From positions 25,414-89,413 of the IMG/VR virus record IMGVR_UViG_3300035227_000232: a DNA stretch of 64,000 bases, one strand, 5' to 3'. Under the pieces are notes generated by a model, which was not told where the DNA came from, searched no databases, and saw only the letters and a program-made list of their open reading frames with translations. Every line of letters starts with the position of its first letter. The first letter of the stretch is position 1. This DNA is from a virus. Its lineage: Duplodnaviria > Caudoviricetes. This document shows positions 32,301-63,999 of the stretch, piece by piece. The position numbers and the translations under genes are program-made.

Positions 32301-35300
32301 CGAGATTTGCGCTCGCGCCGGAATTAAAGAAAATATCATCTCCTGTTATAAGATTTTCACCGCCGTGGATGAAAACCGTACTCCCCGAAATCCTGTTATC
32401 GCCAGAGCCATAAATTGATACATTCCCGCCTATGACATCAAGGTTTCCGCCGTCATGAGTTATGGTCGCTGTTCCTTCTCCCGAAAGATTTATAAGTCCT
32501 ACATCTCCTTCTATAGTGTTGTTTCCATAATAGATCGTTCCCGTAGGAAGAGTATTAAACCCTCCGTATACTACGTTACTGGAAGGAGAATTTATTATCG
32601 GGTTTGAAGGATTATTTAAAGTGGTCGTTCCTTGATTTACCGTTACATCAGTTGCAGACCCTATGGTGGTCGTGCCACCTGAAATTGCGAATCCCCCTGT
32701 TCCTATATCTACAGTAGAATCAAAGAAGTACGATGTGTCGCTCGTGACATTAACAGTGCTTGATCCAGTATAGCCACTGAACGATATGTTCGGAGCCATG
32801 CCAGTAACGTTAGCTTCTGTCGCTCCATAGACATATGTATTAGCGTTTCCTCCGCTCTCTGGATTTTGGTTTATCGTGACAGTAGATAAACCTGTAACAA
32901 AATTCGTTCCATGATTTATTGTTAATTCACCAGAAAGATCGACAAGATTAAGACCACCGCTTATTGTAATCTCTCCACTAAAATCATTTTGCAGAACATT
33001 AGTGCCCCCACTAATTATGACAAGATTTCCGGTTACATTAGTTAGTCCCCCCGCTATGATAGCCTGACCGAAACCAGTTACTAAAGCTGTGCCATTAGAA
33101 TTCGTGTTATCTACGGTAACAATTGAACCATCACTAAATTGTAAGATGTGCGGAACATTGCCAGAGGCGTTAGAGTTATAAACGGAAACATAATTCCCAT
33201 CTCCAGAAAGAGTGATCAATTCGCTACCCGAAATATAGTTATTCGTTGTAGCTCCTGATACACCAAAGATATTTACTAAATTGCCGGAACCAGTATTAGA
33301 AAAATTTGAAAAGTCTAGCCAGTTATTTCCGTGATAAATATCTACGACATTGCCAGTGATAAGATTTTGTTGGGTGTAAACTACGAACCCACTTGAAGGA
33401 TGCGAGAAATCTCCTCTGACTACATAGATTCCAGTATTATCCGTCGGCGTAAAGTGTAGGCTCTGATACGCAATACCGATAGACGGATCATACATATTAA
33501 CGCTTGCGCCAGACCCTTCGAACGTAGTGATATCGCTATTCGTAATATTTACGATTCCACCGAACACATTTTCCGCTGATGTATTGGCATAGAAGTTAAC
33601 GACTCCAGAGTTATGGACTTGCGTGTCAACACCGCTAGTTATATTAAGTTCCCCTTGAATTGGGTTTGTTATGTCCACCGTTCCTGTGTAGACATTCATC
33701 GCCCCGTATACGGACGGAGAATTGACTCCATTAAAGATATCTAAATAATCAGTGGTAATCGTATTTACGCTATCATAGATATAATTTCTACTACCCGAGA
33801 GAGAGACGACGCTGTCGTTGATGGCCGTGTTTAAAACCCTCGAAAAATTTCCGTATGCACCGATAGTAACACCACTACTGTTCTGAATAGTTTGATTCCC
33901 ACTCGTTATATTTATGTTCTCTGAACCAGTGATAGTTATTGTGTTTACTTGCTCATTTATGTCTATCCCCGTGGAACTATGGATATGGATAATGTCGCCC
34001 GTGACATGAGCCAAAGAAGGGTTATTAACAGTTAGATTAACCTCATAAGCATCTCTAGCATCGACGTAAGAAATCCCTCCTGTAGCATTTAACTCAAGAT
34101 CGTATTCAGTACTGATAGTGTTGGTCGAATCATAAGCGTAGACAACAGAAGCATCGCTAATCGATACATTTTGATCAGCACCATTAATATATGCAGTATT
34201 AAGCTCGTTAATGTAAGAGTTCGATAGCGTCAGATTAATCGTTTGATCCCCGGTTATGTACGTGGAATAAGTTCCATAACCATTCTCATCACCAATGTTT
34301 AAAGTCGTGCATTCCGACCCGCTATTGAAAGTTACTATTCCCGTATGAGAAGTAATGTTTGCCGTACTTAGGACTGCGTCGCCTTGAAAAATTGCATAAG
34401 GATGAATGTCGATATTCGCCGTGGTCGGGTTCATCGTCCCCATGAAAATACCGCTGCCTGTGATATAGGCAGTCATAGTACCATTCGATGTGATGGTATT
34501 GTCTCCGTACCAGACGTTGATATCTGACTTACCCAAATAACTGTCATCGACAGTCATTGTATTAACGCCACCCGTTACTATTAGATATCCCCCGGTCTTT
34601 GCATGTAGGGCATTAACGCCTCCCGTAATATTGATTGGCACAGAGGAGCCGGAAGCGTTGTTCAGTACATTAATATTAGTAGTTAAGAGATCGCGGTTTA
34701 CAAACTGTACACCAGAATAAATTGTGATGTAATTCTCCTGATATCCGTAGTTCCCATTAGAGAATGATGGGGAATAATGTCCGCCCTCCTCGATATTGTT
34801 TTCTATAGTAGTATAAACTGGTGCTGGTTCATCGCCGGATACGTAATCCGTTATAAGGATGCTAGAGTGTGTGACATCAAGGGTTCCCGTTCCAAAAGAA
34901 ACGATAAAAGAAGAGTCGCTACCGGAAACACTGACTACTGAATCTGATATAACAGCATTACTTTGCTCTATATAAACTGGGTCTACAGTATTAACATGCG
35001 TAGTACCACTCCATATGCTAAACGCAGCACCCGTGGCGTTTATGTTGCCTCCTGTTATATAATTGCTGCCTCCTGAGATATGCACGAGCCCAGAATTCGC
35101 GATAGTCTGTTGTCCTCCGATGACCTGAAAAACTCCAGCTTCGTCTAAATCAATAGTGTTGATACCACCAGAAATATTTATATTACCAGTTATATTACCG
35201 GAGACATTTAGGATACCGCCATAATTTGAAATATAGTTATCGCCACTAATGTCTACACTTCCGCCAGAATTCCAGATGTTTAAAACCCCGCTGTTCCTGT

Positions 35301-36717
35301 CAATGAAAGCACGGTTTAAATTATAGACCGTATTTTGTGATCCGGGTTCAATGACAAACAAATAACCAGTGATATCAGCAATAATATTGGAACCATGATA
35401 GTTCCTCATTAAGACGGTCGAACCTATCCCTACATTATTTACTGAAAGCTGCTGATTCGAATCATCAATATTTAGGGTGATTACATCGTTAGTTCCACCG
35501 TCTACGGTTATGTCTCCAGCCGGATTGTTTACGTTGGTTGAATACGTAAGCTGCTCGATTACACCACCTGTTATCTGGACTCCAGCAGATGAAACGTCGA
35601 TGTTCTTGATTGTATCTCCGGTGACTGAAGCGTTGCCTCCATCTTCCACAAACACATTTATACCACTCTCAAAATCTAAAACGTTTTTACCGTTTACATA
35701 AAGCCCCCCGCTAATATTAACGTCCTTATGAAGAGTGAGAGTGCTTGTCTTAAGGAAATTTTTTCTAATCTCGAAATCAGGAAGAACACCCTCGTATAAA
35801 TGTACTGATTCTATGTTCCCGGTGAAGTGGTTATGGGTATGTGTCTCTCCCGTGTTATACCCTACTAGAAATGGCTGATCGTTATAAGATATTGCAGCCC
35901 CAGCTTGAGAAGAATCTCCTGTTATATATTTTCCATTAGCGTAAATGCTATGGGTCGTTCCGTCCCACTTCGCCGTAACGTAATGCCAGCCACTCCAATG
36001 TATATCATCTACCGCTACTTCTGAGGCTGAATCGTCAAACCTAATCCTATGGACAAGTCTTCCAGAATTATAATAGTGAAAGCCATAGCTCGTATCATTT
36101 CCTTTTGTTAGCTTACCAGCTACGAAGTTTCCTTCTCTGTGCCCTTCTTGAGTAGGATTAAAATACATCCCGAAAGTAAATACCTCAGGACGGATGGAGC
36201 TACTGTCTTCGATTCTTCCGAAATCGCCAGTTTCATCGACAATGAATTGATTGACATGAAACTCAGCCATCTGACCCGTACTCACGAATGATAGATCATT
36301 TTCGTAATACGATTGGTCATACCACTGTGCCCCAGTACCATGATAGCTGTCTAATTTGGAGGCATCTAAATCTAAACTAAGCCCTGACTTAACAATGGAG
36401 TTGGGGTCATTTGCTATCGTAGACCTAAGAGGAATCCCATTTATATAATAATCTCCAGCATTAAGGAACAAGCTTCCACTTTGTACGGATAAGTCACCAC
36501 CATAGATCGTTACATTTTTATCGAAGAAAGCGTCACTGTCATGAACGTGAAGAGCACCGAAAAGCTCGGAGTCTCCCTCTACTAATAAGCCCGTCCCTTT
36601 GACATGAAAAAGACCAGCGTTTACCTGTCCCAACTCATTAGAGAGGTAAACGTTGACATCCTGAGGTATCGGCACAAGCTCAGGAATGAAACCCGTAATT
36701 ATCGTACAATTCGCCAT
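23311..36717 (-). CDS. Giant 4468 aa fibre/adhesin: half IPT domain, LamG-like domain, long ITG/SG-rich beta-solenoid, C-terminal fibre domains
   Basis: Uninterrupted ORF. LamG-like segment ([39 protein letters not shown]) at about 36400-35750. The body is G/T/N/I/S/V-rich. Confidence 0.9.
29520..31210 (-). repeat. About 14 tandem 35-40 aa repeats (core period 111 nt) inside the giant ORF
   Basis: Consensus [22 protein letters not shown]...I[DE]K[ST]GxF. TATGGTCGTCTGCCCAGA occurs at 30553 and 30664. Confidence 0.92.
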
Positions 36718-39024: not shown

Positions 39025-41721
39025 TTAAAGTGTCCCCGGCGTAATACTGGTAATATATCCAAGGGGCGGTATTACATATAGGTATTTCCCAGAAGGGTAT
39101 AATGAACCATCCTGCCCATTCATGTATACGTTCCCCGGAACTGCATCGGGCGGAATTATCCCTGTCAACGTAAATTGATTTATTCCTGTAAACGCTGCTC
39201 TCGCGTTATTGGTGAAAGTCGTTTGAAACGCACCAGAAAAGTCAATCGCAGAATCTGCATATACAAGACTATCTAACCTAGTGGGCCAAAAGTTTTTCCC
39301 TTGTATTATTATATCAGTCCCCGCACTGCCCGTCGTAATAGAGTAGGTCCTTATATCTCCATAGATAGCCTTGATAGCCTCTTCCTCTTGATAAGAACCT
39401 TTAATACCATTAGGAAATTTCGAAGAAAAGACATCTGTCGAATAGTAGAGAGGGTATAACAAAGATTGGACATTACTGTTATGCCCGATTCCTAATACGT
39501 GACCTATCTCATGCGCTGCAATTAACTTAACGCTATAAGAATTAGGATCACTTGAAGCAGGATCACCGTCTGGTCGCCAATCATCTTGAGAGTCAAATAC
39601 TACATCACCGCCAATGTTTCCCACGCTCCCAAGGCTCCCTCCCGGTTGGTATGCGTAAGCTAATGTTTTATGCTGCCCATCTACAGGAGACATACTGAAT
39701 CTCCAATCACCGATACCCGACGGAGAAACTGTCGGTATATCATAGTCTACACCATAATAATCTGTAGCTAGACCAGTGGTCCTTTCTGTCCCGAGGTCTA
39801 TAAAATTCATCGAGAGTCCGGGGAACCAATCTTCAAAGGCGTCTTTCCACTCTCCTATCGCTGACACGATCTCTCCAGAGAACTCTACAGCATTGAGAGA
39901 ACCATCAAGATAGTCCTCCATATCAACGTTCTCAACGATGACATTATCCGAGCCCCTCCTTAAACTCCCCCCCGACATGAAGCTGTACCTAATAGTTACG
40001 GTCTCTGTCCCGCCAGCGATGACATTCTTTACGGCGGTTTTAAGAGTTGGCCAACCATCGTAAGATTCCCAGCTCCTGAGATGGTAAACGTCTTGTTGGA
40101 ATCCTGTTATAGCTACGTCTTGTTCCAAAGGATCAGAACTTATAGATTGATAGGACCTTCTATCTGGAGATTGCGACTCAATCCAATGCCCCGGAGGCTG
40201 ATAGAGATACAGCGGGATATGGTCTGTATAGCCCATTAATTTTATTTTCCCTTGGGCATCGTTATTCGGAACGATAGCTTGTACTTCGTAACCATCAACA
40301 ATTGAAAATGTCGAATTCAAGCCATTAAATTGAACTCCTGTTAGTCCCAAGAAACTCTGCCCTTTTACGCTAATGGTAGTATCGACATCCCCGGCGGAAG
40401 GACTAAAGCCACTGATCTTAGGTAACGGCAACCACGTCTCAGAAAGGACGGTCTGATCTTTATCAGACGAAACGACTTTTATTCTACCCTTGCAAGACAG
40501 GTCTGGAACTTTAACTTTGACTTTGGTAGGCGACTCTTCTCCATTATTCAGCAAGTCTACTGTCCCAACGATACTGAAACTATTAGAAGGGATGTCGTTA
40601 GGAGGGAAAAGAACCTCTGTAATTCTATCAAAATTCTGCCCGTGAATCGTAATTTCATCACCGGGATAACCAGTAAATGGAACAGCGTGGGTCGCAACCA
40701 TATCTGCGAATAAAAGGGTGTAAGTGTTTGGGCTTCTACTCTCTCCACCAAAGTTTGTAATGCTTATATAAGAGTCAACCTTAGAAGCCCCATATGGAAC
40801 TTTAACCTGAACTCTTTCATCCGATATGACCGTAACATCATTAGTACAAGCTTTCCCGAAGCAAGCTTTCACTGCCGTCGAAAGATTATATCCATTTACC
40901 GTTACCGTGTCATGTTCCCTGAAGGCCAAGGGAGAGAAAGATGTAATTTCTGGTTCCGAAACAACGTTGTCTTGCCTTACGGACAAGCTCGTCATTAATG
41001 GTTCATTCGCTGCTGCCCTTATATTCTTAGCAGTGACCTTTCCCCTTACCCCATAACTCTCAACAGTCACAGAACTATCTATAGGCTTAAGGTTTATTTG
41101 GATAGCTGAATTATTCCCTGTGACGGAAAGGTCTCCGCTCAGATTGTCTATGTCTATAGTTAAGCCTACCTGTTTCTTCCCAAATTTTACGTCGCTGGGG
41201 ACAGTTTCTCCTGCCTTTAGAGCGGGCTCGACTTCAGCACTATAGTTATATCCGAACCTTAAAATATTAGAAATGTCCCCTATCCCAGAGCCACCGTCTA
41301 AGACAGCGTCAGAGAAGTTTAAAAAATCTGTTTTTTCCGCTTGTTCGTATGTTGGATTAAATTCGCCTTTCAACTCATCGAAAAATACAATCTGTGCTTG
41401 AACCGTAACGGGACTTGCAGGGACAGCATTGAAAGAATAACTGGATAGATAACCACTCTTAAAATTTAGCCCACCAAAATCTCCTGTTATCGAATGTATT
41501 TCATCCTCAAAATATTCCTTCAGAGGGTCTACGCCTGTAAGTATGTACGCTATGTCAAATCTACCGCCGATTGCATTAGTCGATAAATAGTCGAATGAGT
41601 GTCTTTGCTCTGAGTAATATTGAGGCTCTGGACGAGCAGAAAACTCTACAGTAGCGTTCGTAACATAGATAGGCTGCTCATTTATCTGAATCTTGCAGTT
41701 CTTGTAAGTATAGTAAGCCAT
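39025..41721 (-). CDS. Tail-tube-fold protein fused to IPT/TIG repeats and an M10/matrixin-like zinc protease domain
   Basis: The N-terminal ~250 aa are paralogous to the two upstream genes. IPT repeats follow, then GGDVVFDSQDDW and HEIGHVLGIGH (39481-39513). Confidence 0.85.
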   Translation of the reverse strand: MAYYTYKNCKIQINEQPIYVTNATVEFSARPEPQYYSEQRHSFDYLSTNAIGGRFDIAYILTGVDPLKEYFEDEIHSITGDFGGLNFKSGYLSSYSFNAVPASPVTVQAQIVFFDELKGEFNPTYEQAEKTDFLNFSDAVLDGGSGIGDISNILRFGYNYSAEVEPALKAGETVPSDVKFGKKQVGLTIDIDNLSGDLSVTGNNSAIQINLKPIDSSVTVESYGVRGKVTAKNIRAAANEPLMTSLSVRQDNVVSEPEITSFSPLAFREHDTVTVNGYNLSTAVKACFGKACTNDVTVISDERVQVKVPYGASKVDSYISITNFGGESRSPNTYTLLFADMVATHAVPFTGYPGDEITIHGQNFDRITEVLFPPNDIPSNSFSIVGTVDLLNNGEESPTKVKVKVPDLSCKGRIKVVSSDKDQTVLSETWLPLPKISGFSPSAGDVDTTISVKGQSFLGLTGVQFNGLNSTFSIVDGYEVQAIVPNNDAQGKIKLMGYTDHIPLYLYQPPGHWIESQSPDRRSYQSISSDPLEQDVAITGFQQDVYHLRSWESYDGWPTLKTAVKNVIAGGTETVTIRYSFMSGGSLRRGSDNVIVENVDMEDYLDGSLNAVEFSGEIVSAIGEWKDAFEDWFPGLSMNFIDLGTERTTGLATDYYGVDYDIPTVSPSGIGDWRFSMSPVDGQHKTLAYAYQPGGSLGSVGNIGGDVVFDSQDDWRPDGDPASSDPNSYSVKLIAAHEIGHVLGIGHNSNVQSLLYPLYYSTDVFSSKFPNGIKGSYQEEEAIKAIYGDIRTYSITTGSAGTDIIIQGKNFWPTRLDSLVYADSAIDFSGAFQTTFTNNARAAFTGINQFTLTGIIPPDAVPGNVYMNGQDGSLYPSGKYLYVIPPLGYITSITPGTL

Positions 41722-51878: not shown

Positions 51879-52796
51879 ATGGCGAAAAACATAAATTATC
51901 TAGCTTCAATTCAAAAAGGATCAAGTAGGGTCGTAGGCGAATCCCAGAATGATTGGAAAACCATTAGACCCGGAAGCCTCTTAAGATTTAGAGAAGATTC
52001 AGTCCCTTACACTGTGTCTACCTCAAACGAATTCTTCTATATAAAGGACTTCGAAACGGAAGATGGGCTGAGCCTTGAAGTCGGGGAAGACGTTGGTATT
52101 AACCTAATGACTAACGATATCCTAACAATCACCTACAAGGAGTATAAGGCTATAAATGTATCCAATATAGTTGAAGCAGGGGAAGGTCACGCCGAAGGAG
52201 ACGAGCTGGTATGTCAAAGCGGAGAATTGTCTGTTGAGCCAAACAGCAATTTATCTTTACCTACAAGACTAAGAATAGACGAAGTATCTGAAGCAGGAGC
52301 TATTAAATCCGTAACTATTCTTGAACCGGGGAAATATCTCATATGTCCAGAAGAATCCATTTTTTACGGAGGAAAAGGAAATAAGGCCAAGATAGCTCTT
52401 ATCATTGAATTGGTAAACGAAAGGCTAACATCCGAAAGAGAAATATCCAAAACCTCTTTCAGTAACGGGAAATCGCATATTAAACTCAATTACAAACTCC
52501 CAGTTGGAGTCAAGAAAGGGAAGCTCTCTGTAAAAAAACGAGAACTTCTCCTCAACGCTCCTTATACGAATGACTCTAAAACCGAAAAAATCTGCAACAT
52601 AACGAGGGACTTCACTGAACACTCTAACTTCCCTGTCGTATCTCCTAGCAGCCAATCAGCGTTAATGAATCTCGAAGTGGCATACAATGACTTGGTCGTA
52701 AAACTCGACAAACAGATTTTTGAACTTGAAGACGAGATAAAAGAACTTAAGTATCAGGTAGGAAGGCTCGAGAAAGGAATGACTAACGAGAGTTAG
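51879..52796 (+). CDS. Tail-associated protein with degenerate GSGY-type repeats and a C-terminal coiled coil
   Basis: IVEAGEGHAEGD, VTILEPGKY and LDKQIFELEDEIKELKYQVGRLE. Confidence 0.6.
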   Translation: MAKNINYLASIQKGSSRVVGESQNDWKTIRPGSLLRFREDSVPYTVSTSNEFFYIKDFETEDGLSLEVGEDVGINLMTNDILTITYKEYKAINVSNIVEAGEGHAEGDELVCQSGELSVEPNSNLSLPTRLRIDEVSEAGAIKSVTILEPGKYLICPEESIFYGGKGNKAKIALIIELVNERLTSEREISKTSFSNGKSHIKLNYKLPVGVKKGKLSVKKRELLLNAPYTNDSKTEKICNITRDFTEHSNFPVVSPSSQSALMNLEVAYNDLVVKLDKQIFELEDEIKELKYQVGRLEKGMTNES

Positions 52797-55700
52797 CCTT
52801 GTCATCTAATAGACCGCCCGGACGCTTCTGCTCTGTGATCACTTTCAAAATCTCCATTTCCATCATTTGGCCCAACGCCTTGTTCTTGTCTTTATCCTTG
52901 CGGTCTTGATCTTTCTCGTCCCCGTCACCTTTACCCCCGCTCCCCTCTTGGCTGTCATTTTCACTTCTGCCACTTACTTCGCCATTCTTGTCTATGTTGA
53001 CAGTAATACTAATATTGTTAGCGATTTCTCTAGTTCCCTTACTCCCTCCAGAACTAGACCTATTCGGGGAGTCTTCTCCTGAGTCCTGCTCTATAGAATC
53101 CCTAACCCCATCGACAGAGTCGATTAGTTTTACTAAATTTTGGTTAACTACATCGAATGAATTTGATCCTCCTCCTGAATCTCCACCTGTTGACAAACTC
53201 GGCAATCCAGCCCCCACATAACCGCCTTCGGCGTATCCTTTCATATTGCCTAAGTTACTTAAATCCATGAAGCCTTGTATATCTCCTCTATTGAGACGGT
53301 CCAAAGCGTCGGCTCCAAGGTAACTAGTCGATTTCGGGCTGAATATAAACTCTCCTTTAGATACCCTTGCTAATATATTATCTAATCCGAAGTTTCTCAT
53401 ACCCCCACCGTTAGAGTACATTCCTGAATCTTTAACCATCCCTAAACCACCCATAAGAGAACTTGTTCCATCAACAGTCATAGCATTAGAACCTGTATCC
53501 ATCGTTTCCGAAGAGGAAAATGATCTGCTCATTTCCTGAAATTGTCCCGTAGGATTACTAACGATTCCTCCTAACGCTCTTCTAACTAAGCCACCTCGTG
53601 CTTGACGTCTAAAAGGATTCGTAAACAAGTCCATCCCCGGATTGCCCCAGAAATCAGCCCCGAATGGAGCCTTAGCACCTTTCCATAATGCCCCCGGAGT
53701 GTCCTTGATTCCTTTGCCAATCTTGGATGCACCGCCCCTCAAGCCTTCCCAAAAACCCTTCGCCTTCGTTGCCTGACGATTTGGGTTTCTGAATGCGGGG
53801 TTCAAATCATGAAGCTCCGATTCGATTTTGCTCAACCTAGCCCTATCCTTATAAACATTCTTAAATTCTTGTGGTACATTTTGGGCTCCCCACATATGCA
53901 GTTCATCAGGGGCTCCTGTAGTGTTGAGACCTTGCCTCTCTTTCTGTAATGCTAGCTGTTTCTGAAAACTCGGCTTAGCCATCATTTCAGACAAGTCCTT
54001 TTCAAATTCCAAAGCCTTTTTCGCGTCATCTTCCTTTTGCCACTTGCCCAAGAGCCCAGCACCGAGTCCGCTTATACCACCCGCTATTGCACCTTTCGTA
54101 CCGCCGAAAGCTCCACCAATCCCTGCGCTTACAAGCGTTTTTCCTCCGGTAGAATTAAGGAATTTACCTATAGCATTTGTATCTCCCCATTGGGCTGCAC
54201 CCGCACTAACGAGACTCATAGCAGCAGACATCCATCCAGACTTAATCATCTGCTTCTTCTTCTCTCTGAATGCCTTCATCTTCTCTGCATTTGCTTTTTC
54301 CCTTTCGTATTCGCTTTTGCGATGACTATAAAAAGCCTCTTCTCTCTCAAAACGTTCCTTGTTCTGCGGGTTACTTTGGTTCTCTTGTCCGAGAATTGAA
54401 AACATCGGGTCTATGTTTTTAATCATTTTCTCCGGCTGCTCAGGATTATCAAAATCAATTTGATTCCTTAAGACAGCAGATATCCCGCCCCCTCTCGAGT
54501 ATCCCTTTAATGAGTTGAGCTTTTCTAAATTGTCATATCCAATTCTCTTGGCTGAATCTGCCCGTATTACATATTCTCCTCCTGAACCGAACATCGGGAC
54601 ATCATCAGACCTTGGCCCAGTTCCTCCCGTAACTCTACCTCCGTTCGCATAACCCTTGACCAATCCGCCACTGGCGTGTCTCTGCCCCATCAAGTAAGAC
54701 ATAAAATTCTCTGATGAGAAGTCCAGCATTCTGGAAAAGATATTACTCGTAATATCCATAGCCAAATCCCTGAAAGCTTCTTTAGATGACTTGGTTCCGA
54801 ATGCAAATTCTTTGAATGCTTTTTTAAACCCATCTCTCATTCCAATAGCCGTAGAATCGATTAGGTCCTTAAGGTCCTGCATGTCATCTTTAGCATTCCT
54901 TATAAAATGAGAAGTAAATTGACCACCCATGTCACCCATTCCATAAGTTCCATCATTTACCTTCCCTTGATAATACTGTTTATTACCAGCGCGAGCAGTA
55001 CGACCGGATATCTCTCCTTTTGCAAGCTTCATGTCCAGAGCTACTTTCTTCATCTCGTTTGCCATTGCTGACATAGTAGCATTAACAGAGAGCCCATTCT
55101 TCGCTGCTTCTTTCGCCACCCGCGCAAATCTTTGCTGCACCTTAGTCCTGAATTCCGTAGCTGTTTTAAGGTTCTGCATTACATTGAAAGAACGATCCAT
55201 AGACCCTGCATATTTATCGTACTCTTGAGAAAGTTTACCCATATCAAGAGTGCCTTTAAACTTAGGCTGATCCAAATATTCGGCCATCTTATGAGGAGCT
55301 AGCTTATTTCCAAATTCATCTGTAAGCATTTCGTCCTTATTGAGGCCAGAAGCCGACGCTCTTTTATTCCACTGCGTATCATAGTCGGTCTCCAACTTCT
55401 TAAGAGCCTCGGGGGTCTGCGTCTTTAGGAAGGTCTCGTGCATATCACGCTGTTGCTGGAGTTTTAGTTTGTCATGCTTAAGTTTTTTTAATTCTTCACT
55501 GTCTTCTGGTCGTCCAGTTACGTATTCTTCGGTTTCTAATCTTGCTATAGTCTTGTCTAAAGAACCGATTGTTTTTTTGATCCCCTCTACCTTTTTCTGT
55601 ACTTCGGGCCGATCTTTTATGTTCTGTTTCATCTCATAGGAGTCCATTGCTATGTCTCCCGTAGCTTGGCCACCTATACCCCAATATCCTGCTCTTCTTC

Positions 55701-58700
55701 CCGCAGCGTCAACGTTCCTTTTCTCAGTCATTCCCGATCCATCGTCCAATCGCCTGAAGAATATTTCTCCCCTCATCATCTGAGCAGCTTCTTTTCTTTC
55801 TTGATCCACCATCGCTTTTTTCTTCTCGGGGGATAACGGGACGTACTTGCCGGAATCATGCTGAACAAGCTCTCTCTTTATTATTGATTGCAAACCGTGA
55901 TCCTTTTGGGCGGAGGTCATTGTCAGTCCTTCTCCCTTCATGAAATCGGACAGATCAAGACCTGACGCCTCAAATTTATCAGCTAACCCATGGGATACAG
56001 CCTTATTCATTTGATTCGTATAGTCACCAATCATAGGCTGTTGACTTCGTTGATTAATGAATGAATCACCCAGACTAGTCATGCCCTTCCACTGACTATT
56101 CTCTAATCGATAATTTTCTATCTCTCTCCTAGTGGGTTTTCCGAATCCTTCCGTTCCCCATTTGTCCTGCAATGCATCTTTTGCTTCATCTTGGGAAGGT
56201 CGCTCGTATCTTCCGTAGATATCGCCAAGAAGATTTCTCATCCCCTCCTTTCTTCGGGTTCGAGCTTCTTTGACTCTTTTAGAGTAATCTGTTACTTCCC
56301 CCGGACGGGCACGTTCTGTCGCAATGCCCAACTGTAAATGACCCTTCCTCTGCTGAATCAGTGCTTGCTCTGTCAGTAATTTTCTTTGCTGCAAGTCTAA
56401 TGGTCCGGTCATTGCCGAATTGCCCCCAGCAGCAATCCTTTTTACCCTTATCCCCTCTAATTCTTTACCAATCTTTTCTAACCTTTCCGAAAACTCACGG
56501 TACTTTTTCTCCATCTTACTAAGGCTCGTGGGAAGCTCACCTAACGAATCTTCTATGGGTTTGACCCAAGAGGGCTGTGTCGGTACGACTTGATTCGCTG
56601 GATCAAGTTTTTTGGGAACTGCTTTTGATGCTTGGGTAAGCCATAGAGTTTTAAACTCCGATAGACTCAAGTTCATTTTAGCAGCAGCCCTTACAATACT
56701 CTGCAAATCAGTAGCTTTGTTTCCTTCTTGAGTTGCCCATTTTGTTTGGCCCGCCGTCTGCCACTTGGTCTGCTGAACCCTTAGCTCTGCAATAACATCC
56801 TCAGCACCAGTATTGGTATTCTTGGCTATAGCATCTTCTAAAGCTTTCAGAGCATTTCCGGGTCGCAGCTTGTAGGTATCTGAGGGGTAAGCCTTGTCCT
56901 CTAGTCCCTTTACGAATGCATCCACGCCATCCTTAAAATCCTTTATCACTTTAGGCGTTATTTGTTCAGTTTGCCAAGGGGTCTTTCCTTCACCGCCATA
57001 GCCCATAGTGCTCCTCTGCCTAGCATTGGTGGGGGACATGAAGTAGCCTGTAGGTAAGTCCGTTGCGGGAGCATACGACCCTCGAGCTTGGCGTTGAGTC
57101 CAAGGGTTAGTATTACTGTCAGGATATTGGTTGGCGTAGCCACCTTGTGCAGAGTAAAGCACATCACCTGAATTCAATGCCTCCAAGAAAGCCCTATTTT
57201 TCTTCGTGGTCTTTGCGTTTACAATAAATTCTCCGGGGGTAAGCATAGCTGGAACGACGTCTGTTCCTCTTGCTGTTAAACCCATCGACTCGAGAATACC
57301 TCCGCTGTGTCGTACTACGGGAGGAGTAATTGGGGCGGTATTCGGATATGTAGTTTGTACTGGTCCCAAGCCGACAGTTCTCGGCAGCATTCTTTGCCCA
57401 TATTGATTTGCGAAATCATTGATGCTTTGGATAAGGTTCGTTTCCGCTGTCATTCTATCCGCGTTTATAGTCCTTAAATCACTAACGGACTGATTATATT
57501 CATCGACAAGTCCTTGGTATCCGCCAGAAGTAAACATCTCATTAACAAAAGCATCTATAGTCTCAGCACCATGCATAATTCTACCCATGAACGCTCCCTC
57601 TTCCACAGAACTCAGGGCCAAATCTTCGAAATCTTCTCCACTGTCAATATATTTGTCCTTCTGTTTCGCAGCAAATTTTTGCATCGCATCTTGAACATTC
57701 ATGCCCTTGTAAGGCATGTCGGTCTTGCCGTCTGTTGTTACTGAGTAGTTACTTAACCACTCCTCTATCTCACTTAGACGTTCCGCATATAATTCTTGGA
57801 TGTCGGTCATTGATGTCGGCACGCCACCCACACTTGCTGCTTGCGCGTCAACTACTCGCGCTCCTCCTAATGTGCTCGTTACAAATTCTTGCTGAGTCTT
57901 TCCTGAGCCAGCGCGTCCACTATGAGGTGCGCCCATCGCTAGGTTCCTGAAAGCAGACATCATTGAATTGCTTTCCTGAAGAAGCTTTAATCTAGATGAA
58001 TCTGCTTTAGTTGATTGAGCCTGAGTATCCACTTGAAAGTCTAAAACTTTCTTTTGGTCCACTTGCATGGTAAACAACTTGGCTTGCTGCTCAATAAGGG
58101 ATAGGATTGTCCCCCTCCCGCCTCCTGTAATATTAGTTGCTCCTGTACCGAAAACATTTTCTGTAGCCGTCCGAAATTGCGTTTGCATCTTGTCCATCGT
58201 AGTCACATTCTCGGATACGATAGTCTCTTGAAGTTTCAAAATTTGCGACCTTACCTCCTCTAACTTTGCGGGGACAGCATCTTTCAATGAAGCTTGAACT
58301 TGATTCGTCGCAGCCTCGATTGTCCCTTCGCTGCCCATATCCTTCATCCATCCGGGTAACTCAGTCCCCGTCTGTATCTCATATTCTCGGGCTGTCTGAG
58401 CCATCTGACTGGCTCTTCCAGCGATTGCATCACCCATTAAATTTTTCGGAATATTTTCAGCCCCAAAGAAATTCTTAAACATATCCGCACCTTTAAATGA
58501 TGCTATACCTTCTGATATCGTTGGACTGATGCTTCTCGGTGCTCTCTGAGTTTCTGCCGTTAAGCTATCGATAGCCAGAAGACCAGAGTGTGTTCCCTTC
58601 GTATATGACTGAATTCCACCTTGGTAACTTAACGTTTTTTGGATTCTTATTAATTCTTGAGCATATTGACCCTGAAGTTCATTAAGTTTAAGTTGTTGGC

Positions 58701-61700
58701 CTAATTGTTCATTGGCCTTCAACAATGAAGCATTGCTGCCCTCACTCGACACTCTTATAGCCTCAAGAAGATTCTGCAAAACTGTGTTATCTCCGGTGAT
58801 CGCGCTGAGGCCCGAACCCGGAGTATTGAGTTTATTTTGCACGAATTTCAGTAAGTCATCCGTACTAGTACCTTGCTTCATCTGATCGCCAACCATATCT
58901 ACTAACCTAGCTAAAGCATTTGCCTGTGGTCTAGTCTGTCCCGCTTTGGTCAAATAACTTTCCAGTTTACTTCTGTCTCCCCGAACCGCTGACTGAAAAG
59001 CTTTACTCATATTAGTAGAAGACTTTCCAAATTCGCTGGCTATGTTTTTCAACAAATCTTTTCTAATTCCACGATCAATAGACTCAAGAACCCCTGTATG
59101 CCGACCTAAAATCTGCGATACCTTTATCGAATCCTCTAATCGTTGGCTTGATTCCGGTCCAAGAAATGGCTTAAGCAAATCTGCCCCAAGATTCATCTCT
59201 GTCATCGCGAAGTTCCTCTTCCCCGCTGACCTCAGTCCCCTAACATCTTCAGCAGTACCAGATGATCTTGTTAACGCATTTACCGCATTCCCAGTCTTCA
59301 TATATACTGACTGCATAACGTCTTCCATGCGTTGTAACGCTTCTCTTGCTCTATCCGCAGCATCTTTCTGACTATTAATACTTCGGGTTAACAATTTTGT
59401 CATCTCCGCATCAAGGATAAGAGCCTGTACCTTTTCTTGGTATGCGCTTGCTATATATTGAGCATCCGCGAGAGTAGAATTTTTTATAGCAGTTACATCA
59501 CCGCCGAGTTTGCCAAATATATCCATGATACCCTTTTGGGTATACCCTGCCATGCCTGTGGTTGAATCGAAGACACTGTCCATGTCTTTCATCAGTTGGG
59601 TAAGTTCCGCTGTTGATTTTCCGCCCAAGTCTAAAGTCTGAACATATTTACCTGTAAATTGATCAAGCTTCTCCATCCCCTCTACGGTCCTCATCAGAGG
59701 ATTAGACCAATCGGAAGTTTCTGCATACCACGGGTCATCCGCCGACTTGCCTGTTGCTCGGGCAGCTTGTCGAGCTGCATCTCTATGCGAGTCCTGCTTA
59801 CTATCACCTCCCGTAATTGCTCGCGACCAATTCGAAGATTCAAAGAACGACGTACCCCAGAATCCGCCTCTTCTTTCGTCTTGCATCTTACCCATAGAAG
59901 CAGCAAGAGATTTAGATTCAGCATCGGCAGCTAATCTCAACTGCTCCTTGCTCATGACCGCATTCATTCTCTTGGGGTCATTCATAGTCGCAATTATTTT
60001 GCCTCGCGCTGAATCAGGGATATTACCCATAGCAGTCATCATTACATCCCTTCTATCTTTAAGGTCTTGGGGTGTAAGTCTTCCTGTCTTATCCCGAAGT
60101 GCATCTGAATAATCTCCTAATGCTCTCATGAATCCGCTCGTTCCATTCTGAAAATCTTTAAGTGCTGCTGAAGCTAATTCTGATGAAGCAGCTAACTCAG
60201 GTAAGACCTTCATGTACGCATCAGCCCCGGCGGTCAAAGCCATTAACCCCCCTGCTGTCAAACCTACAGCAGCACCAATAGCTGCACCCGCTGGGCCTCC
60301 GCCTCCCATGCCCCACGCTGCGCCCGTGTACATCGAGCCCATCATTGCGCCTATCCCAGTATAACCAGCAGCAGTGCCCCACGCTTGTGTCTCGGCTTTC
60401 TTGGCCCTTTCATGTTTAGACGTTCCGGGCATTCCGGCAGCAAACATCCCACCGATCATTGGGCCCATGAATGCCAGTGGAAGACCCATCTTCTGCATCA
60501 TCGCACCACCGCGATGAAACCTCTCAGCACCCTTACTCTTATAAGCCTTACCTGTCTGCGGATTGATTATTTGGCCGTGGCTCGCTAGCTTTGATTTTGA
60601 ATCTCTGACCTCCGCTGCGGATTTCGTGGTCGCCGTTCTTGCTTTGTCATATGCTGCTGCTGCTGCTGCTGTAGATGCGTTTAATTTTGCAAGTTCGCGT
60701 TCTAGGACAGCTACATTTGATCCCGGTCTCGGAGCTGTTGGATCAGCACCAAACCCTAAGGGCTTCGCCTTGGCAACTTTTTCAGCAGCCAAGTTAGAAG
60801 TTGCCTGAGCGTGCCGTGCTTGCTCATTCCTGTAAGCTATTCTGGTTGTTCTCGTGTTTTGCCTAGCTTCTTTAAGTTTATTTTGTTCATCCAACAGGGT
60901 GTTCTGGAGCAACTTCTTGGAAGCTGTCTCAGCATTCTCCCCCATCCCCATGAAAGCGAATGCAAGCATTCCGATGCCCATTCCACCACCAGCAGCATCT
61001 GTTCCCTCAAAGAAGTTCGGGACATGACCTTTCGCATTACTAGCTGCCCCTTGTAGCCCCATTCCTGTACGGCCTAAAGTTGAACGAGGTTGACCAGCGG
61101 ATAGATGTTGATTGATTGCATTAGAAAGACTTCCTTGGTTATCAGTATAAACTCCAACTCCTACTCTCGCATCATAACCTATCTTAGGAGTACCTCCTCT
61201 TCCCGACATCTGAATACCGAGTTTTTCTCCTCTGATCGATCTCTCTAATGGGTCTTTAGAGAAACTAGGAATAAATCCATCGGACGCCCTAGCATAATGG
61301 GCTTGCCAACCGGGTATACTCCCTTGTGACATATAACCCTCAATCGATTTCTTCCCTGCTCCGCGTGCAGCGAGATTCATGTATCTGTCATATCGCCCTA
61401 TTTTCTCATTGTTCGATAATTTTTTTGAAGCACCTAACCATTCTGCGATTTTGACTTTGGACTGCTTTGGTATTCCTAAGAATCCTTTCAAGTCTAAACC
61501 ACGAAATCCGTGGTCTGGATTTGTCCACATGTTCTCTCTTCGGGGAACGCTTTCAGCCAACTGTTTTCTAATCCTACCTCCTTGACCACCGCCAAACTTC
61601 ATATACTGGGAGAACATTTGGCCCATCCCAAAATTAGGAACATGTCCTCCTGATACAAATTGTACTCCAGTTTTTTGACTACCTAGGCCAAGAAAGTCTG

Positions 61701-63999
61701 CCATCTTATAGTTGCCCTCTGCTCTTTTAAGGTATTCACTTATTGCAACAGGGTCTCTTCCTGCTGAACCCGGCCCATGTTGCTTAAGATACTTCGTAAA
61801 ATTTGCGGTGGAAATTATTGGTTGTAATCCTCCTGCATCTAAAATTTGAACAAGACCCTTGTCTACCATTGATTTAGCTGATGCTCCCTCTAGGAAAGCT
61901 TTCTCGAACTTTTCTACATCTCGGACAGAGTAATTATCCGCCTTCATCAAATCGTTTGCTAAGAATTTAGAACTCTTACCCGTCAGCCCCTTTACAACCA
62001 TTGCTTCGCTCAATTCGCCTATGAATTTGCTATCAAGCATACCCATTTCACTTAAAGAAGTTTTATGAAGTGGGGTTACCATTTTTCTAACTATCCCCGC
62101 TGCTGGAGCATGGCCGACCAAAGGCTCAACTGGTACACCTGATTTTTTGGCAGCTTTTATTACCTGAGCTTCAAAAGCGAGTGTATCCAAGCGCATCGCC
62201 ATCAGCGGATCATTTTTTGCTATGTTATTATAAGTTCCTTGAGTCCCTTGTCTTAATCCCTTCAAGACATCCGCTGCACTCATCTCTATGGGCGATTTCA
62301 TGACCAATGCAGTTTTTGCTAAGGCTTTACTTTTTGGAAAAGGCGATTTTGATGGCGTTCTCATTGCTTCCCGTATGGCCTCATTATCCCATTTTACGCC
62401 AGCTTTCCCCGCAACATTTTGAGAAGTCAATGATTTCCAATCGAGCTTCGGTGTTGCCCACGCTGTTCCTTCTGCACCTCCACCTATGCGTGTTAAATCT
62501 TTAGCCTTCGCTGTCTTAGCCCACATCGACAAAGCTGCCATGTTAAAGTTCGGAACAAATCCATCGAATCTGTTTTCCATTGCTTTCGTCAGCCCCGGAG
62601 ATGTTTTCATTTCTCCCCATTTTCTTCCAGAAGCTGCAAGGACGTTATCCAACGCTAACTTTTTATCGGTTGCTAATAATCCTTTAAATTGATGTTGATG
62701 AGGGATGAAGCTAGCGTAATCATCAGATAATTTTGTAAAGTCTAAATCTTTGCTTCCTCTTTGTTTTTGTATATACTTAAGCCACTCTACTTGGTTTTTG
62801 TTTCTCCACCCCCAGTCTGCCAGATACTGTTGAGTGGGTGCTCCCGTTCCAAATTCTTTTTTATGCGCTGCTTTTGTTGCAGACATACGTTGAGCCATTG
62901 AACCCACCATGAAGTTAGGAACGAAGCCACCGGAATAATTCCGACCTCTTCTGAAATTAGCCATCTCTTCTTCCCAGTCCCTACGGCTAGATGGAGTTGG
63001 ATTCCTTTTCATTTTTGCCATAGATAGAGGGTCAGCACCCTGATTGTATCTCCTTGATGCCCCCGGCCCAATGCCCCCATGACCCCTCAATTGACCAACA
63101 CCCATACCCTCTTTATCAAAAAGTGGTCTGAACAGTTTCGCTGATCCAATTACAGCATCTTGTGTCAATGTTGGTTTTGATCCCATTCCCCTGAACATTC
63201 GCAGATTAAGTTCTGGGTCCGCCTCCAGTTTTGCTATTTTGTTTTCTAAATAAGTCTGCTGCGCTCGGGCGTTCGGATTCTGCGTTAGTACACGTTTCTT
63301 CAGGAAATCGTATGCTTTAAGATCGTCCATCTTTTGCAATCTTCCTAATTCTGGCCCTTTGAAATCGAATCGCGTTTCTGCCCATTTCATGGGAAACGTG
63401 GGTAGACCCGCATCAGCGCGTAGAGAATTGAAACTCCCGCTAAAACCATCTTTGGTTTTCGAAGTTTTCAGGACTGGCCTTTGCCGTATAATCGAACCTA
63501 AATTCGGAACTGGCATCATGGCTTGGAGGTCTGAAATTTCGTCCGTCGCACGCTGCCTTCTTCTCAGTAGACCCTTCTCGTACTGGTATCTTTGTTTAGC
63601 TGGTAAATTATTAATATAATAAGCACTCCCCGGACCTTCCCAGTCTCTCTCCCATTTGTTAAATTTCCTAAATTTAATATCTTGAATAGGTTCACGACTC
63701 TGACGCCTCAAACTTTCCCGCGCATGTCTAGCTAGTACATTCGGCATCACCATGAAATTCGGAACAAAACCCTCAGCCAAAGTATATGGGTCTATACCTG
63801 TCTGAGACATTGCTTCTTTTCTATGAGATATCCCTGCTTCGGAATTTTTAGGAGGACTAATAAACGGTTGAGAGAACCCCGGAACTGAGGAAACTTTCTC
63901 TGCTGTATTATAAGTAACCTTACCCAACCCCGGCATGTCCATGCTCTTTATCTGTCCGGGTTTATATCCGCCTAAAGCAGCACCGACAGACTCAGCCAT
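52783..63999 (-). CDS. Tape measure protein, >=3738 aa, probably 5' truncated, with an internal cassette array
   Basis: Long helical/coiled-coil body, Gly/Ala/Met-rich membrane-like segments, three GG..D.VP....GE[FY][IV] motifs, and a C-terminus NISITVNI...EQKRPGGLL typical of lambdoid-type TMPs. The frame is open to the window edge. Confidence 0.9.
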   Translation of the reverse strand: MAESVGAALGGYKPGQIKSMDMPGLGKVTYNTAEKVSSVPGFSQPFISPPKNSEAGISHRKEAMSQTGIDPYTLAEGFVPNFMVMPNVLARHARESLRRQSREPIQDIKFRKFNKWERDWEGPGSAYYINNLPAKQRYQYEKGLLRRRQRATDEISDLQAMMPVPNLGSIIRQRPVLKTSKTKDGFSGSFNSLRADAGLPTFPMKWAETRFDFKGPELGRLQKMDDLKAYDFLKKRVLTQNPNARAQQTYLENKIAKLEADPELNLRMFRGMGSKPTLTQDAVIGSAKLFRPLFDKEGMGVGQLRGHGGIGPGASRRYNQGADPLSMAKMKRNPTPSSRRDWEEEMANFRRGRNYSGGFVPNFMVGSMAQRMSATKAAHKKEFGTGAPTQQYLADWGWRNKNQVEWLKYIQKQRGSKDLDFTKLSDDYASFIPHQHQFKGLLATDKKLALDNVLAASGRKWGEMKTSPGLTKAMENRFDGFVPNFNMAALSMWAKTAKAKDLTRIGGGAEGTAWATPKLDWKSLTSQNVAGKAGVKWDNEAIREAMRTPSKSPFPKSKALAKTALVMKSPIEMSAADVLKGLRQGTQGTYNNIAKNDPLMAMRLDTLAFEAQVIKAAKKSGVPVEPLVGHAPAAGIVRKMVTPLHKTSLSEMGMLDSKFIGELSEAMVVKGLTGKSSKFLANDLMKADNYSVRDVEKFEKAFLEGASAKSMVDKGLVQILDAGGLQPIISTANFTKYLKQHGPGSAGRDPVAISEYLKRAEGNYKMADFLGLGSQKTGVQFVSGGHVPNFGMGQMFSQYMKFGGGQGGRIRKQLAESVPRRENMWTNPDHGFRGLDLKGFLGIPKQSKVKIAEWLGASKKLSNNEKIGRYDRYMNLAARGAGKKSIEGYMSQGSIPGWQAHYARASDGFIPSFSKDPLERSIRGEKLGIQMSGRGGTPKIGYDARVGVGVYTDNQGSLSNAINQHLSAGQPRSTLGRTGMGLQGAASNAKGHVPNFFEGTDAAGGGMGIGMLAFAFMGMGENAETASKKLLQNTLLDEQNKLKEARQNTRTTRIAYRNEQARHAQATSNLAAEKVAKAKPLGFGADPTAPRPGSNVAVLERELAKLNASTAAAAAAYDKARTATTKSAAEVRDSKSKLASHGQIINPQTGKAYKSKGAERFHRGGAMMQKMGLPLAFMGPMIGGMFAAGMPGTSKHERAKKAETQAWGTAAGYTGIGAMMGSMYTGAAWGMGGGGPAGAAIGAAVGLTAGGLMALTAGADAYMKVLPELAASSELASAALKDFQNGTSGFMRALGDYSDALRDKTGRLTPQDLKDRRDVMMTAMGNIPDSARGKIIATMNDPKRMNAVMSKEQLRLAADAESKSLAASMGKMQDERRGGFWGTSFFESSNWSRAITGGDSKQDSHRDAARQAARATGKSADDPWYAETSDWSNPLMRTVEGMEKLDQFTGKYVQTLDLGGKSTAELTQLMKDMDSVFDSTTGMAGYTQKGIMDIFGKLGGDVTAIKNSTLADAQYIASAYQEKVQALILDAEMTKLLTRSINSQKDAADRAREALQRMEDVMQSVYMKTGNAVNALTRSSGTAEDVRGLRSAGKRNFAMTEMNLGADLLKPFLGPESSQRLEDSIKVSQILGRHTGVLESIDRGIRKDLLKNIASEFGKSSTNMSKAFQSAVRGDRSKLESYLTKAGQTRPQANALARLVDMVGDQMKQGTSTDDLLKFVQNKLNTPGSGLSAITGDNTVLQNLLEAIRVSSEGSNASLLKANEQLGQQLKLNELQGQYAQELIRIQKTLSYQGGIQSYTKGTHSGLLAIDSLTAETQRAPRSISPTISEGIASFKGADMFKNFFGAENIPKNLMGDAIAGRASQMAQTAREYEIQTGTELPGWMKDMGSEGTIEAATNQVQASLKDAVPAKLEEVRSQILKLQETIVSENVTTMDKMQTQFRTATENVFGTGATNITGGGRGTILSLIEQQAKLFTMQVDQKKVLDFQVDTQAQSTKADSSRLKLLQESNSMMSAFRNLAMGAPHSGRAGSGKTQQEFVTSTLGGARVVDAQAASVGGVPTSMTDIQELYAERLSEIEEWLSNYSVTTDGKTDMPYKGMNVQDAMQKFAAKQKDKYIDSGEDFEDLALSSVEEGAFMGRIMHGAETIDAFVNEMFTSGGYQGLVDEYNQSVSDLRTINADRMTAETNLIQSINDFANQYGQRMLPRTVGLGPVQTTYPNTAPITPPVVRHSGGILESMGLTARGTDVVPAMLTPGEFIVNAKTTKKNRAFLEALNSGDVLYSAQGGYANQYPDSNTNPWTQRQARGSYAPATDLPTGYFMSPTNARQRSTMGYGGEGKTPWQTEQITPKVIKDFKDGVDAFVKGLEDKAYPSDTYKLRPGNALKALEDAIAKNTNTGAEDVIAELRVQQTKWQTAGQTKWATQEGNKATDLQSIVRAAAKMNLSLSEFKTLWLTQASKAVPKKLDPANQVVPTQPSWVKPIEDSLGELPTSLSKMEKKYREFSERLEKIGKELEGIRVKRIAAGGNSAMTGPLDLQQRKLLTEQALIQQRKGHLQLGIATERARPGEVTDYSKRVKEARTRRKEGMRNLLGDIYGRYERPSQDEAKDALQDKWGTEGFGKPTRREIENYRLENSQWKGMTSLGDSFINQRSQQPMIGDYTNQMNKAVSHGLADKFEASGLDLSDFMKGEGLTMTSAQKDHGLQSIIKRELVQHDSGKYVPLSPEKKKAMVDQERKEAAQMMRGEIFFRRLDDGSGMTEKRNVDAAGRRAGYWGIGGQATGDIAMDSYEMKQNIKDRPEVQKKVEGIKKTIGSLDKTIARLETEEYVTGRPEDSEELKKLKHDKLKLQQQRDMHETFLKTQTPEALKKLETDYDTQWNKRASASGLNKDEMLTDEFGNKLAPHKMAEYLDQPKFKGTLDMGKLSQEYDKYAGSMDRSFNVMQNLKTATEFRTKVQQRFARVAKEAAKNGLSVNATMSAMANEMKKVALDMKLAKGEISGRTARAGNKQYYQGKVNDGTYGMGDMGGQFTSHFIRNAKDDMQDLKDLIDSTAIGMRDGFKKAFKEFAFGTKSSKEAFRDLAMDITSNIFSRMLDFSSENFMSYLMGQRHASGGLVKGYANGGRVTGGTGPRSDDVPMFGSGGEYVIRADSAKRIGYDNLEKLNSLKGYSRGGGISAVLRNQIDFDNPEQPEKMIKNIDPMFSILGQENQSNPQNKERFEREEAFYSHRKSEYEREKANAEKMKAFREKKKQMIKSGWMSAAMSLVSAGAAQWGDTNAIGKFLNSTGGKTLVSAGIGGAFGGTKGAIAGGISGLGAGLLGKWQKEDDAKKALEFEKDLSEMMAKPSFQKQLALQKERQGLNTTGAPDELHMWGAQNVPQEFKNVYKDRARLSKIESELHDLNPAFRNPNRQATKAKGFWEGLRGGASKIGKGIKDTPGALWKGAKAPFGADFWGNPGMDLFTNPFRRQARGGLVRRALGGIVSNPTGQFQEMSRSFSSSETMDTGSNAMTVDGTSSLMGGLGMVKDSGMYSNGGGMRNFGLDNILARVSKGEFIFSPKSTSYLGADALDRLNRGDIQGFMDLSNLGNMKGYAEGGYVGAGLPSLSTGGDSGGGSNSFDVVNQNLVKLIDSVDGVRDSIEQDSGEDSPNRSSSGGSKGTREIANNISITVNIDKNGEVSGRSENDSQEGSGGKGDGDEKDQDRKDKDKNKALGQMMEMEILKVITEQKRPGGLLDDKANSR
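53284..57309 (-). repeat. Three dispersed copies of the TMP GG-x-D-x-(V/I)-x-GE motif
   Basis: HSGG..GTDVVPAMLTPGEFIV..LN (57167-57309), ASGG..SDDVPMFGSGGEYVI..LN (54514-54675) and NGGG..DNILARVSKGEFIF..LN (53284-53418). Confidence 0.8.
61012..63771 (-). repeat. Six G[FH][VI]P[NS]F motifs punctuating the TMP N-terminal region
   Basis: GFVPNF at 63754-63771, 62911-62928 and 62545-62562; GHVPNF at 61630-61647 and 61012-61029; GFIPSF at 61261-61278 (aa 77, 358, 480, 785, 908, 991). Confidence 0.9.

Follow-up and report, generated by a model that had tools for sequence, protein, structure and literature searches.

The linear IMG/VR record IMGVR_UViG_3300035227_000232 (89,413 bp; CheckV completeness 56%) comes from a virus of the Caudoviricetes, and its last 64 kb (positions 25,414 to 89,413) form the stretch of DNA analysed here, which we call the window. 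The minus strand of the window encodes a giant open reading frame (ORF) that belongs to a tape measure protein (TMP), and this ORF holds a 299-residue cassette (residues 486-784) with an ordered series of protein-kinase-like (PKL) motifs. The cassette is most likely a stripped-down, diverged PKL domain akin to the small kinases found in phage T7, as judged from sequence comparisons with its relatives in other giant TMPs. For this cassette family a PKL identity is the best-supported reading, and we consider a kinase-like fold probable. Our favoured explanation for the window's own copy goes further: residues 486-784 would be a diverged member of a minimal PKL cassette family in giant TMPs, one that is itself catalytically active and delivered into the host. 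We hold this fuller explanation tentatively, at somewhat short of an even chance.

A family of cassettes with kinase-like motifs

Relatives of the cassette are few. An exhaustive phmmer search of 1.84 billion representative sequences with the window cassette returned a single match, the 421-residue fragment P0002. When 84 giant TMPs were searched with hidden Markov models (HMMs) of the close copies, colinear, joint-bounded cassettes came up in P0004, P0005 and P0006, and a later search added P0085. With hhalign, the window subfamily aligns with the P0004-P0006 cassettes at Prob 95.3% and E 2.3e-8 (253 aligned columns, 28% identity), and the two form one family. Seven copies are known, and the family goes unrecognised by public profiles. 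Neither the six-sequence alignment (longer proteins) nor the P0005 cassette gave further members in word-indexed searches, tblastn against 50,697 phage records gave no match, and no related loci were found in IMG/VR, JGI metagenomes or GTDB genomes with either the cassette or gpJ as the query.

As read from the alignments, members of the family appear to be built from an N-terminal helix, a GxGxxG loop, a lysine strand, a PV.P..G..AG block, a D-L-H-x-G-N loop, an insert of ~30-50 residues and an hhD(P/A)G strand, and to do without a kinase C-lobe. In P0004-P0006, the G-loop reads MGRGIDGAFF, the lysine strand WGIKAF, the catalytic loop PSDLHAGNIMISN and the metal-binding strand HVVDPGHF. The corresponding segments of P0085 are LGSGVYGDFY, IGKKIV, PSDLHWSNVVV and SVVDPGDF; with ~210 residues (aa 1258-1465), ending about a dozen residues past the DPG, this is the most canonical and compact copy. 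The three glycines G506, G508 and G511 of the window's loop are invariant in all six aligned copies, even though the relatives are merely 25-29% identical, and both the catalytic-loop Asp and the Asp of the DxG strand are retained in every family copy that reaches them.

A sequence-only reading of the window had proposed a kinase-like domain from seven motifs, all of which are indeed present in the minus-strand ORF: IGGGAEG, VMK (aa 566-568), EAQV (aa 610-613), GVPV (aa 621-624), IVRKMV (aa 636-641), NDLMKADN and ILDAG. For NDLMKADN the start at 61933 had been placed correctly, while the end lies at 61956 instead of 61953. The motif series is beyond what chance would give: a loose ordered pattern (G.G..G, [VILMA].K, D[LIVM]x3-4N, hhD.G) arose in 3 of 20,000 shuffles of the cassette, and within 86 giant TMPs (262,000 residues) it is confined to members of the cassette family.

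Some further observations concern possible unrecognised relatives. The part of the L001 cassette that runs from the catalytic loop to the DxG strand (aa 164-233; window 61852-62002) matches phrog_35628, a family of unknown function, at E 0.0016, and both close copies weakly match phrog_13354, also of unknown function; these two families may be unannotated relatives of the cassette among isolated phages. In P0085, a TMP of 5,354 residues, more cassettes with a G-loop and a lysine can be picked out by eye at aa ~1030-1095, ~1495-1680 and ~1935-2140 (e.g. YIGEGGEHIVHRF and LGKGGSRTAFDIGDEAILKL), so that this protein may carry several kinase-like modules. Its precomputed Pfam annotation lists a ParB-like domain, PF02195.

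Similarity to known kinases

The similarity to known kinases becomes visible through the relatives. Among the 38,880 PHROG families, the sole match of the P0004 and P0005 cassettes is phrog_18305, annotated 'kinase' (E 0.011 and 0.037, respectively), and it falls at the catalytic loop; T7 gp0.7 matches the same family at 8e-21. In the ESM Atlas, the core of the P0005 cassette has named neighbours at 0.90-0.92 that are all PKL families: Phage_T7_kinase (ten hits), Kinase-PolyVal, OspG_kinase, YrbL and APH. Alignment by hhalign of the P0004-P0006-type relatives with T7-type kinases taken from GenBank phages (9, then 15) yields a score of 36 (P 2.4-3e-4, Prob 40-44%) with the G-loop, the lysine strand and the catalytic loop colinear, whereas 60 column-permuted controls reach a maximum score of 20.5. 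The hhalign probability stayed no higher when six extra T7-type kinases of greater diversity were included. The comparison with four E. coli APH-family paralogues results in a single local alignment, catalytic loop to catalytic loop only (P 0.025). Finally, a T7-kinase HMM run against 86 TMPs ranks P0006, P0005 and P0004 first, at E values of merely 0.016-0.1. Four independent methods (the PHROG profile, the ESM Atlas, and hhalign to T7-type and to APH kinases) concur on kinases, giving a weak but concordant signal in which none is decisive alone and all stay under family thresholds.

The same results have to be set against the idea that there is no kinase fold at all: the cassette would be an orphan module, mostly helical, that serves as cargo or ruler and whose motifs look kinase-like by convergence or chance. 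The lack of any profile match at a curated threshold would fit such a module, as would the short hhalign alignments to kinases with their probability of just 40-44%, the error-prone nature of motif matching by eye, and two AlphaFold2 models (described below) that are low in confidence and largely helical. It fits less well with the agreement among the PHROG profile, the ESM Atlas and hhalign to T7-type and APH kinases, which all indicate kinases through equivalent functional segments. Moreover, the columns kept across the distantly related copies coincide with kinase catalytic positions, and the ordered motif set is rare in shuffled cassettes and absent from TMP sequence outside the family. 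We regard an orphan module as rather unlikely.

A different candidate fold appeared transiently. A three-sequence profile matched a polyketide synthase ketosynthase (thiolase-fold) domain, 7zma, at E 0.0086 over aa 116-262, in a stretch resembling HG.G...DP...LGS.K (E 0.12 with the single sequence), which could make the cassette a fragment related to such domains. This candidate was rejected, as the match is lost with the wider six-sequence profile; the active-site Cys region is absent, the cassette is too short, and the matched columns differ from the ones conserved in the family. A ketosynthase origin is thus highly improbable.

The copy in the window

The window copy is the least canonical of the family (Table 1). 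It retains the G-loop, a lysine and two aspartates, D684 of the catalytic loop and D721 of the DxG strand. The relatives each have one clear lysine (YAIK, WGIK, IGKK), while two candidates, K522 and K568, are found in the window because of an insert beside the lysine strand, which counts 41 residues in the window, 9 (aa 245-253) in P0003 and none in P0002. K568 is the lysine of the VMK that the sequence-only reading had assigned to strand beta3. It does align with the lysine of P0002, but K522 rivals it, lying two residues ahead of the lysine of P0003 and P0004-P0006 and three ahead of that of T7 gp0.7. In the catalytic loop, D684-L-M-K-A-D-N can be read as D-x4-D or as D-x5-N and departs from the canonical D-x4-N, whereas P0004-P0006 and P0085 have DLHxxN. 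From the loop Asn to the DxG Asp, 31 residues are counted in the window, against 48 in P0005 and 47 in P0085, and aa 724-784 offer no place for a kinase C-lobe.

Table 1. Features of the TMP ORF and its kinase-like cassette in the window, in the direction of translation (aa, residue of the truncated ORF)
Feature	Position	Strand	Basis
Giant TMP ORF	52783..63999	-	84 giant PF10145 TMP matches; ~550 residues with the PF10145 domain apparently lost at the contig end
Joint motif GFVPNF (aa 480-485), opens the cassette	62545..62562	-	Same motif class bounds cassettes in relatives
Cassette 3, putative kinase-like module (aa 486-784)	61648..62544	-	Alignments with family copies
Gly-rich loop IGGGAEG, GxGxxG (aa 505-511)	62467..62487	-	Falls on the G-loop of T7-type kinases in hhalign
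K522 (DWK), first candidate beta3 ATP-binding lysine	62434..62436	-	Alignment
41-residue insert peculiar to the window copy (aa 523-563)	62311..62433	-	Alignment
ALVMK (aa 564-568), second candidate beta3 strand with lysine K568	62296..62310	-	Aligns with YAIK of P0002
GVPVEPLVGHAPAAGIVRKMV (aa 621-641), conserved PV.P..G..P.AG block, possible beta4-beta5/hinge	62077..62139	-	Family alignment
Catalytic-loop-like NDLMKADN (aa 682-689)	61933..61956	-	Aligns to (S/H)DLH(A/Y)(G/E)N of P0004-P0006 with a one-residue gap
27-residue insert (aa 690-716), catalytic loop to DxG strand	61852..61932	-	Absent in T7 gp0.7
ILDAG (aa 719-723), DFG-like candidate Mg-binding motif	61831..61845	-	VVDPG in relatives; ITDP in T7-type kinases
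61-residue C-terminal extension (aa 724-784)	61648..61830	-	Common to P0004-P0006, absent in P0085
Joint motif GHVPNF (aa 785-790), closes the cassette	61630..61647	-	Sequence

Several results on this copy weigh against our favoured explanation. Pfam is silent on the window cassette at E<=1 and on its relatives at E<=10, and the PHROGs give the window cassette no match below 0.08. Six-frame searches of the genome with PF18762 (E<=10) and with PF01636 found nothing, and sequence searches of the PDB, with the single sequence and with profiles, found no kinase. The best ESM Atlas neighbour of the window cassette stands at 0.79, and no family emerges. Taken alone, the window subfamily aligns to T7-type kinases by hhalign at P 0.05-0.08 (Prob ~1%). 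AlphaFold2 models are unusable for both the window cassette with three close copies and the P0005 cassette with six sequences (predicted local distance difference test, pLDDT, 38.7 and 35.8, respectively), and Foldseek found no match for the low-confidence model of the P0005 cassette. To this come features of the copy itself: besides the ambiguous lysine next to the long insert, its catalytic loop runs one residue over, no longer has the His and shows an Asp at the Asn position, and an alphaC Glu cannot be identified. The sequence-only reading had named E610, in EAQV, as the alphaC Glu, an assignment that finds no support, as this residue is not conserved in the relatives. In addition, a folded 30-kDa domain does not obviously fit the lumen of a siphovirus tail. 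The proposed PKL identity draws its support at the level of the family, through homologues with canonical motifs, the PHROG match, the language model and hhalign (P 3e-4), and the window copy has no significant profile match of its own.

Because of the insert at the lysine strand and the overlong, His-less catalytic loop, the window copy may be a pseudokinase. In that case, it would have a kinase-like fold without phosphate transfer, and would serve as a nucleotide- or protein-binding module (e.g. by decoying or scaffolding a host factor) or simply as tolerated ruler length. The concentration of kinase signals from profiles and the language model on the relatives, with none on the window copy, would agree with this, and so would a dN/dS (ratio of nonsynonymous to synonymous substitution rates) of 0.45 between the window and its closest relative, L001, over the third cassette, which indicates only moderate constraint. 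Conversely, an intact G-loop, a lysine and both aspartates have been kept, in the close relative P0003 as well, the Asp or the adjacent Asn of the loop could still bind a metal, and many active atypical kinases deviate to a comparable degree. Loss of catalysis is a serious possibility, yet on the whole we think it unlikely to be the explanation.

The carrier protein and its joints

The sequence-only reading had assigned the carrier to the TMPs, and this is borne out by its homologues and its neighbours. Used as a query, the first 1,000 residues of the 3,738-aa ORF retrieve 84 giant proteins, which range from 2,100 to 5,400 residues and with few exceptions have PF10145 (TP901-type tape measure). 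Searches of Pfam and the PHROGs with the whole ORF gave it no name, and the lambda-like tail genes M, L, K, I and J adjoin it on the other strand, in a layout that recurs in the relatives L001, L004 and L005; the order of genes also agrees with that of L003. Residues 1-82 of the ORF align to aa ~547-627 of the giant homologues, and no PF10145 domain is found on the whole contig of the window; we conclude from sequence that the ORF is a TP901-type TMP whose first ~550 residues have been removed by the contig end. In the closest relative, L001 (82% identical), a 547-aa ORF with PF10145 lies immediately upstream. Residue numbers therefore count from the cut, so that the designations 'aa 486-784' and 'third cassette', taken over from the sequence-only reading, apply to the truncated ORF.

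The cassette is a discrete unit, as had been proposed, bounded by GFVPNF and GHVPNF. Six motifs of the form G[FH][VI]P[NS]F (aa 77, 358, 480, 785, 908 and 991), here called joints, divide the first 1,000 residues of the ORF, and the putative kinase-like module fills exactly the one cassette that is framed by the third and fourth of them. The P0085 TMP has 18 joints of the type G.(I/V)PN(Y/F).

Synonymous divergence between the window and L001 amounts to 0.27 in the kinase-like cassette and to 0.05-0.08 in three neighbouring cassettes, and this difference suggests that a more distant allele donated the cassette through recombination. The L001 contig derives from long reads at 3x, and its errors add noise to these figures. 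When window 61012-63999 (minus strand) is compared with L001:9744-10781, cassettes are exchanged exactly at the joints: the DNA is 89-93% matching on both sides (window aa 1-82 and aa 356 onward), while between the first two GFVPNF motifs a 275-residue cassette in the window stands opposite an unrelated one of ~100 residues in L001.

A few minor observations relate to the gene and its joints. In L001 (8055-10001), gene calling splits the TMP into three ORFs, each in a frame of its own (547 aa with PF10145, 47 aa, and 3,524 aa), within ~300 bases. Because L001 is a 3x long-read assembly, this split is probably due to frameshift errors, with a TMP that is really split being conceivable. In lambda, the TMP gene lies ahead of M on the same strand, unlike in the window, where the TMP gene (43562-63999 region) converges on the gpM-L-K-I-J tail-tip genes from the opposite strand; L001, L004 and L005 share this arrangement. 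Lastly, the C-terminal part of the free-standing T7-type kinase of Pseudomonas phage Luutsna-6 has EEMRVPNFQPQ, with a VPNF string like that of the TMP joints, which may be chance.

Comparison with known systems

In terms of sequence, the kinases closest to the cassette family are the T7 gp0.7-type Ser/Thr kinases (PHROG 2828, 15752 and 18305; PF27024 in the ESM Atlas), which are the best hhalign partners of the relatives' cassettes, although the similarity stays under any family threshold. These kinases likewise start with an N-terminal helix followed by LGxGxF..A, have a lysine strand of the form (V/G)IK(V/A)(G/F) with the lysine two positions on, a catalytic loop D(L/M)H(S/A)GN(I/V)M and a metal-binding hhDP strand, and are small proteins without a classical C-lobe. 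They differ in being free-standing early products made after entry, whereas the cassette sits within a virion tail protein. Furthermore, they have ~10 residues from the catalytic loop to ITDP, compared with 31-48 in the TMP copies that reach this region, and their DLHxGN is replaced by DLMKADN in the window; a wider form of their loop pattern, D(L/M)H(S/A/K/R)(G/A/E/S)N(I/V/M/A)M, fits P0004-P0006 and P0085 but not the window. T7 gp0.7 had been invoked by the sequence-only reading as an analogy, which proves too modest: since the nearest families are the T7 gp0.7-type and the Kinase-PolyVal/OspG-type minimal kinases, gp0.7 is a relative, and the closest one by sequence.

The Bud32, RIO and Kdo kinases had been put forward as a match for the motif layout. 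They do share the general PKL motif order, the small size and a GVPVP-like turn after the presumed alphaC, but no insert precedes their DxG strand and more of their C-lobe is left. This likeness was not upheld by the searches: no RIO1-, Kdo- or Bud32-type Pfam family matches the window cassette (E<=1) or its relatives (E<=10), none appears among the ESM Atlas neighbours, and hhalign gives no signal.

In terms of architecture, the closest known domains are the Kinase-PolyVal domains (PF18762) of phages and conjugative elements, which also reside within giant multidomain proteins believed to accompany the DNA into the host. Iyer et al. 2017 (PMC5512222) predicted that the kinase domains of such injected polyvalent proteins have no C-terminal subdomain and have an insert between the catalytic His and Asp. 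Going by the sequence alignment, not a structure, the window cassette resembles them in its lost C-lobe and in the insert before the metal-binding Asp, and it has an acidic residue just ahead of strand 2 (GAEG in the window). In the ESM Atlas, Kinase-PolyVal is a neighbour of the P0005 cassette at 0.91. However, PF18762 (threshold 27 bits) matches neither the cassette nor its relatives or the genome, and the conserved Gln of the last N-lobe strand is found in P0004-P0006 (PQAG(I/M)IK) but not in the window (PAAGIVRK). The carrier also differs, as the window cassette is part of a TMP, and the words 'tape measure' appear nowhere in the paper of Iyer et al. The sequence-only reading had considered a virion-delivered kinase to be undescribed. 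The idea of an injected kinase is in fact not new, having been predicted for polyvalent proteins in 2017; the placement in a TMP is what that study does not mention, and our literature search found no paper describing a kinase in a TMP.

Other TMPs with embedded enzyme domains offer a third comparison. Examples are the TMP of mycobacteriophage TM4 with its Rpf-like motif, T5 Pb2 with a peptidase, and gp96 of Thermus phage P23-45. Like the window cassette, these are functional modules beyond the ruler that are expected to act at or after ejection. The TM4 and T5 modules, however, act on the cell wall from outside the cytoplasm, whereas a kinase needs cytoplasmic ATP, and the module in the window is one of a row of cassettes fenced by G[FH]VPNF.

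Proposed delivery and action

If the cassette works as a kinase, it would be built into the virion as a part of the TMP and exit the tail before the DNA. It would arrive in the cytoplasm, perhaps cut free at the G[FH]VPNF joints, and draw on host ATP to phosphorylate proteins of the host, in the manner of T7 gp0.7 once that kinase has been expressed. The fold, the catalysis by the window copy, the cutting and the delivery are inferred; observed are the motifs, the homology to cassettes with canonical motifs, the weak kinase signals and the TMP context. No protease domain was found in the TMP itself.

A more far-reaching version of this scheme would see the TMP as a magazine stocked with finished host-takeover proteins. 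From it, the kinase-like cassette would be freed at the joints during or after ejection, enter the cytoplasm before the DNA and phosphorylate host targets before any phage gene is expressed, as a virion-delivered counterpart of T7 gp0.7 that phages exchange by recombination at the joints. We offer this as speculation and consider it doubtful in its entirety.

Should the kinase be real, long-tailed phages would be able to load a T7-like host-takeover kinase into the tail itself, where it could act before the incoming genome is transcribed, for instance against defence or transcription factors. TMPs would then join the 'polyvalent protein' logic of injected multi-effector polypeptides. With seven known copies and no public profile, the cassette family can serve as a test case for the diversity of kinases hidden in phage structural genes.

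Other genes of the window

Two other genes in the window, both on the minus strand, deserve a mention. At 39025-41721, an 898-residue protein combines a matrixin-type metalloprotease domain (PF00413, 1.4e-16) with IPT/TIG repeats, and this is the only recognisable protease near the TMP. At 23311-36717 lies a 4,468-residue ORF that has no PHROG match at all and adjoins a 737-residue collagen-like tail fibre protein.

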